From positions 64,001 through 128,000 of IMG/VR virus record IMGVR_UViG_3300046318_000439: a stretch of 64,000 nt of DNA; one strand, written 5' to 3'. The position numbers and the translations under genes are program-made. Shown one piece after another: positions 16,401-30,208 of the stretch (its first letter is position 1; each line of letters opens with the position of its first letter). The notes under the pieces are model-generated. The model did no database searches and was not told the origin of the DNA. It was given only the letters and a program-made list of their open reading frames with translations. The stretch comes from a virus. Its lineage: Duplodnaviria > Caudoviricetes.

Positions 16401-16952
16401 ATGACAGTTCATTTTGTATATATGTGGTTTGATCGTGTGCGCAAAATGTTTTACGTCGGTCAACATACTGGATCTCTGAATGATCAATACACTTCTTCTT
16501 CACGTTGGCTAGCTGGAGAGATACGTTATCGTCCAGCCGACTTTAAACGTCGCATCATTCGTACATTCAGGACTAAGCATGAAGCTCAGCTATATGAAGG
16601 CAGACTACTAACGCTCATCCGATCCAACGAGTTTGGCTCGAGGTATTATAACCTGAAGATGGGTGCACCTAAAGGCAACTTGCCTTGGAATGCTGGTAAA
16701 ACTAATGTATATTCGAAAGATACGTTAGATAAAATGTCGACCGCCAAAAAAGGACGGCCTTCTCACAATAAAGGTAAACTGAGCCCACTATCAGCCCAAA
16801 ACGGTAAAAAGGGAGCTTCAAAGCTCGCCAAAACTGTAACAGGGAGAAGAATGGCTACTAGGCTAGATGGTACACGGTACTGGATATATCCAGATGTAGA
16901 TTGTTTGGGTGATAAGGAACAATCTACAAATCCTCATTCGATCACTGCTTAA
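16401..16952 (+). mobile_element. Free-standing Seg-like GIY-YIG homing endonuclease gene inserted antisense in tmRNA
   Basis: FVYMW...KMFYVGQHTG...QYTSSS catalytic module, FKRRII, YYNLK, NUMOD-like PWNAGKT/MSTAKKGRPSHNKGK tail. Confidence 0.82.
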
Positions 16953-17091
16953 GCAGCGAGAGCGAAGCGGCTATCATTAGCTGCAATTACATTTATTTGC
17001 TTCTTCGGCCGAGTGTCCTCAACCCTATCGTCTTTCACATTGACGTGTTGCCGTCTCTACTATCTCACGCTGTCGAAACTGTTTCAGGCCC
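16893..17091 (-). ncRNA. ssrA: tmRNA coding piece (permuted two-piece tmRNA), tag AANDSRFALAA
   Basis: 5' GGGCCTG pairs with 3' CAGGTCC-ACCA including G3.U70; TTCGAC D-loop motif; CAGCGTG pairs with CATGTTG of acceptor piece; tag codons 16984-16949. Confidence 0.92.
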
Positions 17092-17152
17092 AATAGAAAG
17101 TATACTACAGCTTTCAGTTACGATACCCCGTAGCACCCCTTAATATACTTTC
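17092..17152 (-). ncRNA. tmRNA intervening segment
   Basis: 61 nt between CCA end and mature 5' end, closed by 9-bp inverted repeat GAAAGTATA/TATACTTTC. Confidence 0.8.
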
Positions 17153-17210
17153 TGGTGGACCTGCCCGGTACTGCCCCGGGGTCCAACATGCCTTCGCTTT
17201 GAAGGGATTA
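17153..17210 (-). ncRNA. ssrA: tmRNA acceptor piece
   Basis: ...CATGTTGGAC CCCGG GGCAGTA CCGGG CAGGTCC ACCA; T-arm with non-canonical GGCAGUA loop; 5' boundary approximate. Confidence 0.88.
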
Positions 17211-17321
17211 CAACAATTCTTTTTTACGAGTTACCAAATGGTATATTACCCAAAAATATATATTAACTGTAGTAGCAATGCCCCATATAAAGGTCCAGTG
17301 CCAGTAGTCTATTAGTATCAT
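17208..17321 (-). CDS. Small hydrophobic protein (37 aa)
   Basis: MILIDYWHWTFIWGIATTVNIYFWVIYHLVTRKKELL*; below ORF-track cutoff. Confidence 0.4.
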   Translation of the reverse strand: MILIDYWHWTFIWGIATTVNIYFWVIYHLVTRKKELL

Positions 17322-21736: not shown

Positions 21737-21790
21737 TTTGTTTCCCTTTCAATTTAATATAATTCATTATCCCGAAAAAGTACAAAAAGG

Positions 21791-22060
21791 TCAACTGCTC
21801 AAATTCATCACACGACCTGGATATTCCATGAAGTCAACTCTCCAAGGAACGAACACTGTCTGACCAACACGACTATGTTTACCTTTTGGTTGCTCTTCAC
21901 CACCATACACATCTTTAGTCACGGTAATCTTATATGACTGAAAGTACTCTTCATTGCAGTTTACAATCTCAACAATACCTTCTACGAAACAATCACCACG
22001 ACCGTCCATTGGTTTGAAGTCGTAAGATCTGATTTTATCGCCTTTTTTCACTTGTAACAT
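21791..22060 (-). CDS. Hypothetical phage protein
   Basis: KGDKIRSYDFKPM...CFVEG; own promoter and RBS. Confidence 0.75.
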   Translation of the reverse strand: MLQVKKGDKIRSYDFKPMDGRGDCFVEGIVEIVNCNEEYFQSYKITVTKDVYGGEEQPKGKHSRVGQTVFVPWRVDFMEYPGRVMNLSS

Positions 22061-24939: not shown

Positions 24940-25107
24940 TTAGTAATTCGTAATCACATTTTCAATCAATTCAGCAATCAGATCTGAATTATACTCATAA
25001 GACTCAAAGTAAGACTGAATGTCAGCTTTTACAGTATCCAAATCCAACTCCATCTCATTACATAAAATCTGCAACTTCTTTTCATCAACATTAATTGTAA
25101 TATTCAT
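24940..25107 (-). CDS. Small hypothetical protein (55 aa)
   Basis: MNITINVDEKKLQILCNEMELD...; own promoter and RBS. Confidence 0.6.
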   Translation of the reverse strand: MNITINVDEKKLQILCNEMELDLDTVKADIQSYFESYEYNSDLIAELIENVITNY

Positions 25108-25198
25108 CTTTACCCCTTTTGTATTAATATATGACCAGTATCCGTTTTTTTAACAAAAAGGTCAACAGGCCTACAAACACCAGCAAGATCCGGAGGGG

Positions 25199-25271
25199 TT
25201 GACTTAATTACGTTTTTCTGGGAAAATGGTTTTAATGATTCGAACAGCATACTCTGGGGATGGACGTGGAG
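25199..25271 (+). repeat. Left (remnant) copy of promoter plus 35-nt transcript start
   Basis: TTGACT at 25199; 25237-25271 matches 25831-25865 at 29/35 nt, both 38 nt from their -35 box. Confidence 0.8.
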
Positions 25272-25282
25272 ATATGGTTTAT

Positions 25283-25290
25283 TATAAATA
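25283..25290 (+). promoter_or_regulatory. Late promoter TATAAATA of the HNH gene
   Basis: Exact consensus followed by AGGAGG and ATG 25308. Confidence 0.85.
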
Positions 25291-25307
25291 CCACAGGAGG
25301 ATGCAAA

Positions 25308-25796
25308 ATGAATGATAATGAACTGTATGAATTGTTCCATAGTAAGTACCGATATGAAGATGGTCAATTGATATCCAAACTAACTGGACAAGCAATCAAA
25401 AACAAAGCAACACGATATTTAAAATGTGAGCTTAAAATTAATGGTAAGACACACAACTTCAGAGTGCATAGAGTTATATTTCTGATGCATCATGGATATC
25501 TACCAACAATCGTCGATCACATCGACCGCGACATATACAATAACCGGATAGAGAATTTAAGAGCAGCTAGTCACAGTCAGAATAGCCAGAATCGCGGTGC
25601 GCAGTCAAACAACAAACTAGGTGTGAAGGGCGTATGTTTGAACACATCAAATAATGCCAAAAGCAAACCATACGCGGCCTTCATAAAAGCCAACGGCAAA
25701 AGATATCGAATCGGCTCTTTTGAAACCATCGAAGAGGCCTCTCGCGCTTATAACGACCATGCATCGTTGCATTTTGGTGAATTCAAGTCCAGTTGA
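25308..25796 (+). mobile_element. HNH homing endonuclease with AP2 DNA-binding domain
   Basis: VHRVIFLMHHG..P..VDHIDRDIYNNRIENLR, NNKLGVKGV, YAAFIKANGKRYRIGSFETIEEASRAY; opposite orientation to neighbours. Confidence 0.9.
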
Positions 25797-25821
25797 CCTT
25801 TTTGTCCTTTTCCCGGATAAT
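25793..25821 (+). promoter_or_regulatory. Early promoter TTGACC-N17-GATAAT overlapping the HNH stop
   Basis: HNH TGA (25794-25796) is inside the -35 box. Confidence 0.8.
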
Positions 25822-25827
25822 GATTAC

Positions 25828-25915
25828 ATAGATTTGAAGAGCTAACTCTCGGAATGGACGTGGAGGGTGGCCAACGATTCCTGGGTGCGCGAAAATTGGA
25901 GTCGGCTCTCCCACA
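25828..25915 (+). ncRNA. Candidate small structured RNA (alternatively 21-aa ORF 25855-25920)
   Basis: Stems AGAGCTAACTC/GAGTCGGCTCT and GGAAT/ATTCC; bracketed by convergent promoters. Confidence 0.5.
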
Positions 25916-26033
25916 TTAACAGTATCCCGGAAAATGGTCAAGAGGTCAACGGATATGCTTACATCTCAGTCAAGTATTATTCAGCTGTTGACATTTTTTT
26001 CATAAACACGGATACTGTATAGAGTGACGTATT

Positions 26034-26231
26034 GTGCGTCTAATATTACATTATATGATTATATCGAGAAAACAAGCAATATTAGAATTAATAGAATATG
26101 ACATTAATGATATTAAATCTCTCAAGAAAAAGGAGATGTTATCATTAATCTCTGACCTATTATCAGACAGGTATTATGAATATACTAATGAAACCCTGTC
26201 CGATGAATATGTGGAGAAGATTATAGGATAA
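26034..26231 (+). CDS. Hypothetical protein
   Basis: ORF downstream of TTGACA-N17-GATACT promoter at 25988-26016. Confidence 0.5.
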   Translation: MRLILHYMIISRKQAILELIEYDINDIKSLKKKEMLSLISDLLSDRYYEYTNETLSDEYVEKIIG

Positions 26232-26547
26232 TCTATATTAACTATTATAATGTATAATAGACGGGATTATATTCTCTATTACCTAGTATAATGTCTAATA
26301 TGATTATACAGGATATACTGTGTATTATCGTGAAATAATCTCCTGGATTATCAAGGGGTTATATTATCTATTATCTCGTTGAATATACAGGGATTTTATA
26401 CGGTAGATTACAGCTGAATATAGCGGTTATACACTGAACGAGGCTGTACTTACGCTGGATCTGGAGAAGGTAAAAGGTCACCGAATCTAGCAGCGATTAA
26501 AGTTGAATTAGGCCTATAGTACCCCACCTTTTTCCGGTATTCCCTGA

Positions 26548-26721
26548 GTATTAGTTTAAGTTCATGCAGTGTATTCTACGACCATATTCTACCTGTTTTA
26601 TCCTTATCCTATTCCGATTGGTATTAGTTTAAGACGGGAGATTGATTTCTTACTATACGGCTTTTATTGTATACTACTGATTACTATATTGAAGGTATTA
26701 GTTTAAGACGGGGTATTGATA
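26548..26721. repeat. Three copies of GTATTAGTTTAAG with 73/74-bp period in non-coding DNA
   Basis: Copies at 26548, 26621, 26695; copies 2 and 3 share 19 nt GGTATTAGTTTAAGACGGG. Confidence 0.8.
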
Positions 26722-26734
26722 TTTGATTAGTCGT

Positions 26735-27103
26735 CTAAAAGCGGACTGTATATTGTATCCTATTAGGGGATACTATTAGATAGTCTGTTATCTTTGCTGC
26801 TAGTAGTGATGAAGCGCATGTTACTATAAAGTCTTGCATTGAGCTATCACGATTCGCATACTTGCTATCCATATACTCTTTTGCTAGGCCTACACCGCAT
26901 CCTGCTAGACTACCTATTACTGGATCTTTTGTTAATAATGTGATTGAGCTTCCTATTGCTGCTCCCATGATAGCATGCTGACCTTTATCTTTACCATGCC
27001 AACTATCATTTGACCTTAATAATTCTCCGTATGATAATGATGGGACTAGCAATAAGGTTAGTAGCCACTTACTCATTATACTGATAATTTCTTTTCTTAT
27101 CAA
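26735..27103 (-). CDS. YfiM/DUF2279-like protein
   Basis: DSWHGKDKGQHAIMG...AKEYMD...S..DF motif after signal-like N-terminus. Confidence 0.65.
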   Translation of the reverse strand: MIRKEIISIMSKWLLTLLLVPSLSYGELLRSNDSWHGKDKGQHAIMGAAIGSSITLLTKDPVIGSLAGCGVGLAKEYMDSKYANRDSSMQDFIVTCASSLLAAKITDYLIVSPNRIQYTVRF

Positions 27104-27765: not shown

Positions 27766-28193
27766 GTCTTTTCCTTGAACTTACGATATGCCAATGATAT
27801 GAATGATGGTCTCACTTCTGGAACAATGCCACCTTCTTGATAGAACATCGCCCAATACCGTTTTTTCTCGTACCGAGCATACAGTATAATGACATAACTT
27901 ATAATACCTGCCCCACCTAATACACCAAACGTGATCCAAACAATAGCGGCCATTGGATCAATAGCGTAGTCCAGGAATAACCAACCAATGAGATTACCAA
28001 TACTGAATAATACCCAAGATACAAATAGGATTGTGACAAATGTACAAAACATCGCCTTAATGATACCAAACGCCACCAATCGTATATACTGACATATATC
28101 AATCGTCTCACCTGGCTTTAGCTTACAATAACTATCCATACCGATATTAGCAAGCCACATATGCCAACTGTCATGTTTAATCTCTTGTTTCAT
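27741..28193 (-). CDS. Hypothetical membrane protein
   Basis: Two TM segments; coupled ORF. Confidence 0.65.
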   Translation of the reverse strand: MKQEIKHDSWHMWLANIGMDSYCKLKPGETIDICQYIRLVAFGIIKAMFCTFVTILFVSWVLFSIGNLIGWLFLDYAIDPMAAIVWITFGVLGGAGIISYVIILYARYEKKRYWAMFYQEGGIVPEVRPSFISLAYRKFKEKTCFKLEVK

Positions 28194-28609
28194 TTCTCAC
28201 TCGCTTTCTTTAGTATTGCTCTAGCCAACCGTCTATGTGCTACATAAATGCCAGGATTTCTAGGCACTCCATATGTTTCATCAACAACTCGGTCTATTTC
28301 CTCATCACTTAACTCTCTTGGTGCGGTGTAGAGTGGAATAGTAAAGTTCTTAGCAATATCTTTATCCATATCAGAAAAATCTTCAACATGGTAAATTGTT
28401 TTGCTTTTGCTCATAAATGCAACAGGCTTTGGATTGTTTTTTAATAGAAGTTCTTGAACTGCATTTAATACTGCTTTTGCAGTTTCATCTACTGACATAT
28501 TAGGATTTACTTCAATCTTTCTATCGGCAGTAATTCTCATAGCCCATTCAGTATCGTAATTATTGAATGTAATAGTATTTGGTGGTGTATCTATTTTTTC
28601 TAATTTCAT
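28190..28609 (-). CDS. Hypothetical protein with ELSDEEI...AILKKASEK tail
   Basis: ORF track; shared C-terminal module. Confidence 0.7.
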   Translation of the reverse strand: MKLEKIDTPPNTITFNNYDTEWAMRITADRKIEVNPNMSVDETAKAVLNAVQELLLKNNPKPVAFMSKSKTIYHVEDFSDMDKDIAKNFTIPLYTAPRELSDEEIDRVVDETYGVPRNPGIYVAHRRLARAILKKASEK

Positions 28610-28788
28610 TTCTCACTCGCTTTCTTTATTTCATCAGCAGTAAATTGACCTAGTGCATATATGCCATAAACTCCAATAGTATTTAAAAAGGCAGACAACA
28701 ATCCTTCATGGTATTTACTAATAAAAGCCATTGTTAATATGACTAAAGTGAAAACTCTCCATTTATAAGACCAAATCTTTTTAATCAT
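28606..28788 (-). CDS. Small membrane protein ending KKASEK
   Basis: ORF track. Confidence 0.65.
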   Translation of the reverse strand: MIKKIWSYKWRVFTLVILTMAFISKYHEGLLSAFLNTIGVYGIYALGQFTADEIKKASEK

Positions 28789-28791
28789 TTC

Positions 28792-28974
28792 TCACTCGCT
28801 TTCTTTAACCCAAACCCACCCAAGTAATTCTTCGGTGTTTTTAATTTGTTCAGGAGTAAATTGTTTATACATAGCAAAACTTATATAACTATATCCATCA
28901 CCTATTTTCCAATGACCTACTGGTTTAGGCGGTGTTGCCATGCTGATTATTTGTGGACTATCTAAATTTATCAT
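28792..28974 (-). CDS. Hypothetical protein
   Basis: ORF track; reads the repeat in another frame (KESE*). Confidence 0.6.
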   Translation of the reverse strand: MINLDSPQIISMATPPKPVGHWKIGDGYSYISFAMYKQFTPEQIKNTEELLGWVWVKESE

Positions 28975-28990
28975 TTCTCACTCGCTTTCT

Positions 28991-29119
28991 TTAGCTTTTG
29001 CCAACAAAATAACCAATCGTATAAAACACAATAGCTACTACCATTGGGTGTTTTAAAACACGAATAACCCATCTTCGCCAATCACCACTAAGAAACCAGT
29101 CAAGAATTTCAATAATCAT
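28991..29119 (-). CDS. Small membrane protein (42 aa)
   Basis: MIIEILDWFLSGDWRRWVIRVLKHPMVVAIVFYTIGYFVGKS*. Confidence 0.55.
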   Translation of the reverse strand: MIIEILDWFLSGDWRRWVIRVLKHPMVVAIVFYTIGYFVGKS

Positions 29120-29403
29120 TTCCCACTCGCTTTCTTTATTAGTTCTTTAGCAAAAGCAACTTCATCTAATTTGCTATTTCCGTATATATCCATATTAGAA
29201 CAGTGCATAGCAATATAAGCTATTTCCTCATCACTTAACTCTCTTGGTGTGTATTGTGCAGGTCTAGCGTCATACTCACCATAATGTTTATCGCATAAGC
29301 ATCCATAAAATACAGCAGGTTCGCATTCCCTAGTTTCACCATCCCATTCGCTTGGGAAACCGCCATATTCTGATTCACAGCCACAGGTCAGTATATAAGT
29401 CAT
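29116..29403 (-). CDS. Cys-rich hypothetical protein with ELSDEEI...KKASGK tail
   Basis: ORF track. Confidence 0.65.
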   Translation of the reverse strand: MTYILTCGCESEYGGFPSEWDGETRECEPAVFYGCLCDKHYGEYDARPAQYTPRELSDEEIAYIAMHCSNMDIYGNSKLDEVAFAKELIKKASGK

Positions 29404-29627
29404 TTCTCACTTGCCTTCTTTAGGATTGCTCTAACCTGCTTTAAACAAACCTGAGCTTTATATCCATCCCATTCACTTTTAGGAATAAACAATTCCTCTA
29501 GTATCTCATCATCGCTCAACTCTCTATACTTAACGACTTCAACGACTTCGGAATCTTCTCCAGCAACTCTACTACTTGAGGCACATGCGCAACCTCGCTC
29601 GTAACAATCAATGTCCATGTATTTCAT
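29400..29627 (-). CDS. Hypothetical protein with ELSDDEI...AILKKASEK tail
   Basis: ORF track. Confidence 0.65.
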   Translation of the reverse strand: MKYMDIDCYERGCACASSSRVAGEDSEVVEVVKYRELSDDEILEELFIPKSEWDGYKAQVCLKQVRAILKKASEK

Positions 29628-30208
29628 TTCTCACTTGCTCTCTTTAGGATTGATATACCCAACTCAACTGGGAAGTTTCTCCATTTGCCGTCTGCAGTCT
29701 TGCTATCGGTCATCCAAAAGTCGTGCTCGAGAGTTGAGAATATTTCTTCATATTCTTCTTCACTCAGTTCTTTTAATGCTGTATACAATGGAATAGCGTC
29801 TGGATAGGCTGGTGGTTTTTCTTTTGAAAAGTTATAAACACCCTCCCATACTTCATTCTCTCGCATCCATGCAACTGGTTCTTGTGATTCTACCGTTGTC
29901 CTTACTACATCCTCATAACCATCAAACTCTTCTACGGGTGCATGAATTAATCTAAACGATTTAATAGTATCTACTAATGCTTCCTCTTCTTTAGTAAGAT
30001 ATCGTCCTCGCACTTCCTTTAATGCTTGCTCTAGAGTTACTTCCAAACGACTCTTCGCTGGCCTAATGCGAAACTCCATTGCTGTATTGCCCCAATATGG
30101 GCAAGGATGCTCATGCCAAACGTCTTCCTCTTTATACTTGTATTGAATCTCAGCACCATCTGCCCATGCTTTGATCAGTTCAGCGTGTTTATGTGGTTTC
30201 ATGTTCAT
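29624..30208 (-). CDS. Hypothetical protein with ELSEEEY...ILKRASEK tail
   Basis: KPHKHAELIKAWADGAEIQ N-terminus. Confidence 0.7.
   Translation of the reverse strand: MNMKPHKHAELIKAWADGAEIQYKYKEEDVWHEHPCPYWGNTAMEFRIRPAKSRLEVTLEQALKEVRGRYLTKEEEALVDTIKSFRLIHAPVEEFDGYEDVVRTTVESQEPVAWMRENEVWEGVYNFSKEKPPAYPDAIPLYTALKELSEEEYEEIFSTLEHDFWMTDSKTADGKWRNFPVELGISILKRASEK

Follow-up and report, generated by a model that had tools for sequence, protein, structure and literature searches.

A predicted pseudoknot RNA element of uncultured T4-like phages and an HNH endonuclease gene that probably landed in one of its copies

We analysed a 64,000-nucleotide (nt) stretch, here called the window, which comprises bases 64001–128000 of an uncultured virus record that is 202,272 bp long and has direct repeats at its termini (IMG/VR record IMGVR_UViG_3300046318_000439). 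On its plus strand, two copies of a promoter and of the segment that follows its start site flank a gene for an HNH endonuclease, and the transcribed half of this repeat proved to be the 5' part of a conserved non-coding element. Judging from sequence comparison, the element is an H-type pseudoknot (helix P1 crossing helix H2) whose loop reads UUCGAA; a GGGRUGGACG block (the G block) and a variable distal part come after it. The reading we favour, with a probability of roughly 0.55, is that the HNH gene landed in one copy of a pre-existing pair of promoter plus RNA modules and did not create the pair. An earlier note on this DNA had read the arrangement differently, as an "HNH-AP2" cassette that inserted about 40 nt into a small transcript and rebuilt its promoter and 5' end.

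Results

A direct repeat flanks the HNH gene

The features that make up the repeat and its cargo are listed below.

25199–25227, plus strand: predicted left-copy promoter (TTGACT, 17 nt, GAAAAT, with TG upstream), with a putative start near 25234
25234–25271, plus strand: left RNA-element copy, truncated, in which the distal part of complete copies is missing
25283–25300, plus strand: putative T4-type late promoter TATAAATA (25283–25290) and Shine-Dalgarno sequence AGGAGG (25295–25300) of the HNH gene
25308–25796, plus strand: free-standing HNH endonuclease gene, 162 amino acids (aa), with its TGA stop inside the -35 box of the right promoter
25793–25821, plus strand: predicted right-copy promoter (TTGACC, 17 nt, GATAAT), with a putative start near 25828
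25828–25920, plus strand: right RNA-element copy, a complete unit by comparison with relatives

The similarity described in the earlier note was confirmed by direct reading of the sequence. The 35-mers at 25237 and 25831 are identical at 29/35 positions, and each begins 38 nt past a TTGAC box (25199 and 25793), both boxes belonging to sigma-70-like sites with 17-nt spacers. Agreement at 29/35 between unrelated 35-mers in register would be a ~1e-12 event; the repeat is therefore not due to chance. A repeat search delimited it as a 74-nt direct repeat (25198–25271 and 25792–25865) with 72% identity and a spacing of 594 nt, flanking the HNH gene at 25308–25796. The 15-nt core of the repeat occurs only twice in the window, and its transcribed part of 35–38 nt only twice in the 202-kb genome. 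As had also been noted, the left copy ends after GGAG (25271) and is followed by TATAAATA (25283–25290), AGGAGG (25295–25300) and the ATG of the HNH gene (25308).

The two halves of the repeat differ in what they can tell. Its first 38 nt belong to the genome's own early-promoter family (GTTGACCTTTTTGT, eight bases, GGGATAMTG), which recurs about 15 times in the genome, most members preceding minus-strand genes with short leaders. Similarity in the promoter half is thus expected between any two promoters of this phage, and the informative part is the 35–38 nt past the start site. The right promoter is a near-perfect copy of the early-promoter consensus, and matches the genome's promoter at 21764–21797 at 91% over 34 nt.

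The pair of copies also occurs without the HNH gene

The closest relative found (locus L200) has syntenic neighbouring genes at 63% protein identity, compared with 46% for the next relative, and a search for closer relatives by way of the neighbouring proteins yielded none beyond L200. The earlier note had expected relatives lacking the HNH gene to carry one promoter and one intact unit, and had named the presence of both copies in such a relative as the finding that would count against it. L200 carries both copies at the same locus without the HNH gene. Between them lies a 112-aa gene of unknown function (phrog_21015) with its own promoter, and the cargo is exclusive: this gene is absent from the window genome, and the HNH gene is absent from L200. 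The left copy of L200 is complete and stands beside a divergent promoter, whereas that of the window ends at GGAG. Several details tie the two loci together, namely the right-copy tail GAGTCGGCTYTCCCAC common to both, the -35 variant GTTGACTTA common to both left-copy promoters, and the identity of the window's left copy to the right copy of L200 at 36/38 positions.

Same-strand pairs of the element, 0.1–3.3 kb apart, were found in at least 10 lineages, in none of which an HNH gene lies between the copies. No relative of the window's HNH gene or of its GIY-YIG gene adjoins the element at about 176 element-bearing loci besides the window, and none of 80 loci with HNH relatives contains the element. 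A gene of the GP88 family (PF17338), absent from the window genome, lies beside or between the copies in several lineages. No RNA run is listed among the public runs that contain the phage. Four DNA metagenomic runs contain the same sequence in short contigs, and no joint in those four runs skips the HNH gene, so that no HNH-less sibling was found there.

These results separate the earlier insertion model into two parts. The HNH gene does interrupt a small conserved unit about 38 nt past its start: the left copy runs to the last base of its best-conserved block, and beyond the HNH gene comes a complete unit. Not supported is the proposal that the second promoter and 5' end were produced or imported by the cassette, given L200, the HNH-less pairs in at least 10 lineages, a layout that never recurs, and a right promoter that equals the genome consensus. 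We propose instead that the repeat would represent tandem modules of a promoter plus a structured RNA, kept by many freshwater T4-like phages where a non-coding, origin-like control region begins. Everything from the left block to the right -35 box would have given way to a free-standing HNH gene that has a T4-type late promoter and a ribosome site of its own. Since the insert replaced the distal part of the upstream copy, the nuclease would have truncated one of two pre-existing copies and not created the pair. Redundancy, or the intact downstream copy, may have made this insertion tolerable.

Two crossing helices co-vary in the element

The earlier note had the right copy continue into a structured segment. 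This was borne out only through comparison with relatives; folding of the single sequence gave z values of +0.33, +0.22 and -0.56, none of them significant, and on either strand the right unit folded no better than shuffles. When the copies were grouped according to how many nucleotides separate UUCGAA from the G block, two short crossing helices became apparent. In P1, the 3–4 bases before the loop pair inside the following segment, and in H2, the three bases past UUCGAA pair with the three bases immediately before the G block. In an ungapped alignment of 42 distinct copies, 89.5% of cells pair (62% in shuffles), changes on both sides were observed in 69 cells (19 in shuffles), and 5/7 pairs changed on both sides. 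The covariation score was 0.68, compared with 0.18 in shuffles, of which 0/500 reached 0.68; sliding the partners by 1–3 columns reduced it to 0.03–0.17. Separate counts for two fixed-length classes (12 and 13 nt) agree with the covariation in P1 and H2.

RNAalifold recovered H2 independently and proposed two further pairs between loop and block, in which the U and C of UUCGAA are matched with the R of GGGR and the G before it. Co-variation was also seen in the bases on either side of the loop, which are G..C in 50 copies, A..G in 27 and A..A in 14. For a candidate closing helix between GGGRUGG and a U-rich strand 8–12 nt past the block, the enrichment was only weak (27 matches of seven pairs where 12.7 were expected) and there is some conflict with the UC/GR pairs, so that we regard it as tentative. 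Many copies run on into a hairpin ending in CUAAC, and about 20 nucleotides of the element are nearly fixed.

Both copies in the window can be placed on this scheme. In the left copy, P1 pairs 25235–25237 with 25248–25250, the UUCGAA loop occupies 25239–25244, H2 pairs 25245–25247 with 25254–25256, and the block GGGATGGACGTGGAG follows at 25257–25271. The right copy has P1 at 25829–25831 and 25842–25844, a UUUGAA loop at 25833–25838, H2 at 25839–25841 and 25848–25850, and the block GGAATGGACGTGGAG at 25851–25865; its distal part holds a possible closing strand ATTCC (25877–25881) and a tail hairpin (25898–25911) ending in ATTAAC. In the left copy P1 reads AUG/CAU and H2 reads CAG/CUG; in the right copy they read UAG/CUA and GAG/CUC, respectively. 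Both helices are thus kept with different letters, and six differences between left and right therefore amount to three compensated pairs.

Two further changes in the right copy, U25835 and A25853, replace the family's C in the loop and the third G of the block. Neither was seen in about 28 copies from loci fetched via neighbouring proteins, which form the unbiased set, and the right copy is the sole case found. The two positions are the pair predicted by RNAalifold (columns 8 and 25), changed from C-G to U-A. On this model, the right-copy changes would fit a unit still selected for its fold while its sequence moved. Escape from the nuclease or ordinary drift would each explain them too, and a single event is weak evidence; the pairing-preserving changes of the downstream copy may protect it from the nuclease.

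At this locus ARAGORN reported no tRNA or tmRNA. A likeness of UUCGA and GGACG to tmRNA ends was considered and found to be superficial after we had read the phage's own tmRNA. The latter is encoded in the window by a permuted two-piece gene at 16858–17245 on the minus strand (tag AANDSRFALAA), which adjoins the GIY-YIG gene at 16401–16952 on the plus strand; TATAAATA lies upstream of this nuclease gene (16361).

The element is spread among uncultured phages

Scans of IMG/VR and of JGI metagenome contigs produced about 107 distinct copies of the element on uncultured, mostly freshwater, phage contigs. An initial scan with the bare 15-mer returned matches that were mostly due to chance; the pattern scan first yielded locus L023 and then L200. 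Among the approximately 28 copies ascertained through neighbouring proteins, (U/G)UCGAA and GGGRUGGACG are fixed, and the five bases that follow vary (UGGAG, GCGAG, UCGAC and others). The element is common to phages whose proteins are only 35–45% identical. A scan of 185,579 prokaryote genomes gave 24 pattern matches, one of which is genuine and lies on a short phage-like contig binned as Dechloromonas; the other 23 are chance matches in coding DNA. Rfam 15, searched at gathering and permissive thresholds, returned nothing relevant at E up to 10 for the window region or at E up to 1 for the loci of 10 relatives, and blastn against 50,697 deposited phage records found no match to the window region or to canonical copies.

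Two variants were observed in passing. A shorter second paralogue without P1 (L006:7100–7160, L156:4600–4650, L204:770–820 and L326:2740–2790) consists of a TATACT box directly followed by TCGAAC, AGAG/AAAG and GGGGGTGGACG. The long form follows 1.8–3.3 kb downstream on the same strand, and the interval contains a gene of the GP88 family (PF17338) on the opposite strand. Furthermore, among the loose contig ends at window positions 25225–25259 in sequencing run X11, a contig from another freshwater sample matched 35 nt of the left copy and then switched to a different block (GTGATGCGTGGAGG...), and thus represents a further element variant in a co-occurring phage.

The HNH gene and its predicted expression

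The HNH assignment was upheld by Pfam (HNH_3, E=3.5e-16), by I-HmuI (1U3E, E=0.003) and by phrog_99 HNH endonuclease (E=6e-46), whereas the AP2 half of the earlier label was not: Pfam gave no AP2 match even at E up to 10, and the only hint was an ERF chain at E=0.19 over 26 residues. Models of group I and group II introns had no match in 25100–26800, and the open reading frame (ORF) is the only one between the two promoters and is not part of an intron or intein. Its presence is sporadic: L200 lacks it at this locus, and so do all other loci examined that bear the element. Relatives of the protein are at most 50% identical and are found in unrelated contexts; TATAAATA was sought upstream of these relatives and not found.

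Within the genome, TATAAATA is rare. It occurs 14 times, and about 10 of the occurrences lie 12–40 nt before a Shine-Dalgarno sequence and ATG, both nuclease genes included, a distribution that matches T4-type late promoters. Fold prediction for the early transcript from the left promoter has the left-copy remnant paired with the AGGAGG/AUG region of the HNH gene (25234–25325; minimum free energy -16.5 kcal/mol, z = -1.85), and a transcript from the late promoter would lack the 5' strand that would mask this ribosome site. Early transcripts from the left promoter would carry the remnant, and the nuclease would stay silent until the late promoter fires. The predicted pairing across 25234–25325 also raises the possibility that a piece of a disrupted RNA gene is reused as a translational silencer of the HNH gene.

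Such control has precedent. Late promoters, ribosome-binding-site hairpins and embedded promoters are known from T4 nuclease genes, sequestration in early transcripts together with a late promoter has been described for I-TevI, segB and Aeh1 mobE, and T4 nuclease genes that displaced promoters carry the promoter of the downstream gene within their own ends (PMC2988022).

Genomic setting and possible role of the RNA

Almost all genes of the window genome are on the minus strand. The genome encodes a T4-type baseplate gene, DNA ligase, ribonucleotide reductase and the permuted tmRNA, and has no nucleotide match among cultured phages. The repeat and the HNH gene sit in a 1.6-kb gap (25110–26735) of the minus-strand gene array, the sole site of plus-strand features in the neighbourhood. 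Besides those already listed, the gap region contains the following.

25137–25165, minus strand: early promoter of the leftward gene array (TTGACC, 17 nt, GATACT), a member of the GTTGACCTTTTTGT-N8-GGGATAMTG family, back to back with the left-copy promoter
25921–25949, minus strand: putative convergent early-type promoter (TTGACC, 17 nt, GATACT) reading back across the right copy
25988–26231, plus strand: putative third plus-strand promoter (25988–26016) and a 65-aa ORF (26034–26231)
26232–26734, no strand assigned: AT-rich tract devoid of genes, in which 43-nt repeats (26620, 26694) are accompanied by numerous short ATA-rich ones; origin-like in context only

A search for relatives of the 65-aa ORF (26034–26231) found none. 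The AT-rich tract (26232–26734) closes the plus-strand island before the next minus-strand gene. The convergent promoter (25921–25949, minus strand) would yield an antisense RNA over the right copy into the 3' end of the HNH gene; a minus-strand terminator-like site lies on its path at 25692–25675, and L200 has a similar -10 box at the corresponding place. Elsewhere in the window, at 28188–29663, seven copies of a junction repeat of about 25 nt (TCATTTCTCACTCGCTTTCTTTA) lie at the boundaries of consecutive small minus-strand genes.

Across the family, the element begins 5–7 nt past the -10 box in most copies, and its strand is opposite to that of the surrounding genes in 8/8 syntenic loci examined. 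At 50 loci with long flanks, the upstream DNA is covered by opposite-strand ORFs, and the downstream 0.6–0.8 kb is poor in long ORFs on both strands. The AT-content profile downstream of the element in relatives showed no clear peak. Perfect DnaA boxes were present within 300 nt downstream in 27/104 distinct copies (89 boxes), compared with 10 boxes in 459 kb elsewhere in the same loci, an enrichment of more than 100-fold over the rest of these loci. Clusters of such boxes (TTATCCACA or its complement) lie 60–250 nt downstream of the element, for example in L366, L400, L159, L375 and L420. At L367:100–560, a copy of the element lies inside an array of iterons of about 17 nt (GAGGTAGCTCTAAGGTA and variants), directly after a tRNA gene, and has an origin-like look.

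By its sequence features, this context suggests an origin or an early control region. Our leading guess for the RNA, offered tentatively, is an origin-proximal transcript that primes replication, activates replication or senses DnaA. A fuller picture combines several steps and appears to us doubtful as a whole: a widespread new class of structured RNA, with a T-loop-like UUCGAA and GGGRUGGACG, would act at the origin or early switch of freshwater T4-like phages (as a primer, an R-loop former or a DnaA-linked switch), the HNH endonuclease would home to its gene, and the downstream copy would have been recoded by paired changes to escape cutting.

Discussion

Weighing the origin of the pair

Several points weigh against the insertion of the HNH gene into a pre-existing pair, as well as against the wider interpretation of the element. 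The comparison involves one close relative only, at 63% protein identity. The first 38 nt of the right copy differ from the left copy and from both L200 copies (27–29/38, against 34–36/38), and the 5' part of the right copy is similar to variants from distant phages, as would likewise be expected if it had come in with the cassette. The L200 pair could descend from an HNH-bearing ancestor with a later swap of cargo, and a tandem duplication cannot be oriented from one genome alone. In addition, the left junction lies inside the element and not at the promoter boundary, as expected of a nuclease-driven insertion into its target. On the side of the RNA, much of the apparent invariance reflects copies that were found by patterns requiring those very bases, the fold that would sequester the HNH ribosome site is just moderately better than shuffles (10/200 as good), and perfect DnaA boxes, sought in the window's own gap, were not found there.

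The alternative that survives best, though we regard it as unlikely, is a target-restoring cassette. Here a single original unit would have received, after GGAG, the late promoter, the HNH gene and a substitute promoter and 5' end, so that the left remnant was stranded and the unit kept working via a recoded copy. The left copy stops exactly past the conserved block; the diverged 38 nt of the right copy keep both helices through compensatory swaps; the tail that follows is still like that of the right copy in L200; and if the nuclease reads the conserved sequence, the two substitutions at positions fixed in other copies would be in keeping with escape from it. The reliance on just one close relative and the failure to find an HNH-less sibling also leave it room. 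Against it stand both copies in L200 without the HNH gene, the frequency of nuclease-free pairs in the family, and a layout that no other locus shows, whether among about 176 with the element or among 80 with HNH relatives. The right promoter equals the genome consensus, and gene cassettes of this genome generally have a stop codon within GTTGAC. The 27/38 agreement of the right copies is about the level of orthologues, given the divergence between the window and L200, whose promoters agree at 20–23/38. A second copy that travels with the nuclease, as such a cassette requires, was not found, a result that is not final with only one close relative examined.

Still less probable is a shuffling of promoter cassettes as with PeSLs, in which similar modules of promoter plus leader recombine and the cargo (HNH here, phrog_21015 in L200) is swapped by homologous recombination with no targeting by a nuclease. 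The slot between the copies does hold unrelated cargo in the two phages, the region is dense with near-identical promoters, and T4-type phages move ORFans by recombination between promoter-bearing repeats (PMC2839356, PMC4122927). However, the left boundary of the HNH insert falls in the middle of the RNA element and not in a promoter, the copies are just 72% identical, the element is conserved far beyond the need of a recombination handle, and what is repeated here is a predicted pseudoknot that would be transcribed from the start site onwards, whereas a PeSL is defined by a terminator stem-loop joined to a promoter.

That the conserved 5' segment is the start of a small peptide (MDVE...), and the repeat a duplicated gene start, we consider very improbable: an ATG does lie in the conserved block, where it starts a frame of 21 codons in the right copy and shares the reading frame of the HNH gene in the left, but the length of this frame varies across relatives from 6 to about 30 codons and its residues are unrelated, the fixed nucleotides show no third-position wobble, no ribosome site precedes the ATG, and the variable positions co-vary as base pairs. 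The small frame at the block AUG (21 aa in the right copy) is thus conserved neither in length nor in sequence, and conservation therefore acts at the level of nucleic acid.

Relation to known systems

The proposed insertion of the HNH gene into one of two existing copies can be set beside the free-standing HNH and GIY-YIG homing endonuclease genes of T4-type phages, which include mobA-E, segA-G and Aeh1 mobE, and among which T4 segB is also located among non-coding RNA genes (PMC2988022). Like these, the window's HNH gene is intergenic and sporadic and has a putative late promoter directly upstream, folding of longer early transcripts is predicted to conceal its ribosome site, and the promoter of the downstream unit overlaps the end of the nuclease ORF. 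Unlike them, it interrupts one copy of a duplicated structured-RNA module and not a spacer between protein genes.

The repeats also resemble PeSL cassettes, in that repeated sigma-70-type early promoters and a structured segment flank variable cargo in a plastic region (PMC2839356, PMC4122927). A PeSL is a lineage-specific terminator stem-loop (often GGGG...CCCC) plus a promoter, whereas the element of the window is a predicted pseudoknot, probably transcribed, with a fixed loop and block, and terminator prediction on the plus strand at the element gave none. With such a pseudoknot in the place of a terminator, the repeats would seem to fall outside the PeSL definition.

Fungal mitochondrial mORFs are mobile endonuclease ORFs that carry a replacement piece of the target gene. 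They share with our locus the order of target remnant, nuclease gene and diverged working copy of the displaced piece. They differ in that the "replacement" would here be a promoter plus 5' end, in that the layout was found at no other locus, and in that L200, the nearest relative, carries both copies but no nuclease gene.

Transcript-dependent origins include T4 oriE, oriF and oriG, the T7 primary origin with tandem promoters, and ColE1, where RNA II is accompanied by the antisense RNA I. The element and its surroundings appear similar in having a strong putative promoter from which a non-coding transcript would run into iteron-, DnaA-box- or AT-rich DNA, in their tandem and convergent antisense promoters, and in a G-rich transcribed strand. 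As a difference, the window's own copy lacks DnaA boxes, and the pseudoknot of the element is not known from any origin RNA. In form, the element is closer to small H-type pseudoknots and T-loop modules, such as preQ1-I aptamers, tRNA T-loops and tRNA-like viral ends, with which it shares two short crossing helices and a fixed loop. UUCGA is a T-loop sequence; the nucleotides flanking the loop of the element co-vary. There is no consistent gene downstream that would point to a riboswitch, and no Rfam model matches the element.

Implications

The arrangement of the HNH gene is a variation on well-known T4 biology, with late-promoter control and a promoter left for the downstream unit, and what is new is the RNA motif in which it sits. 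The RNA side matches nothing that we found, and the main value of the finding is the motif that it exposed. The insertion amounts to a natural experiment, in which one copy was cut short and the other was altered compensatorily at two fixed positions, and it points to key nucleotides of the RNA as well as to a candidate target of the nuclease. If the RNA works at an origin, it would provide a handle on how an abundant group of lake phages starts replication.

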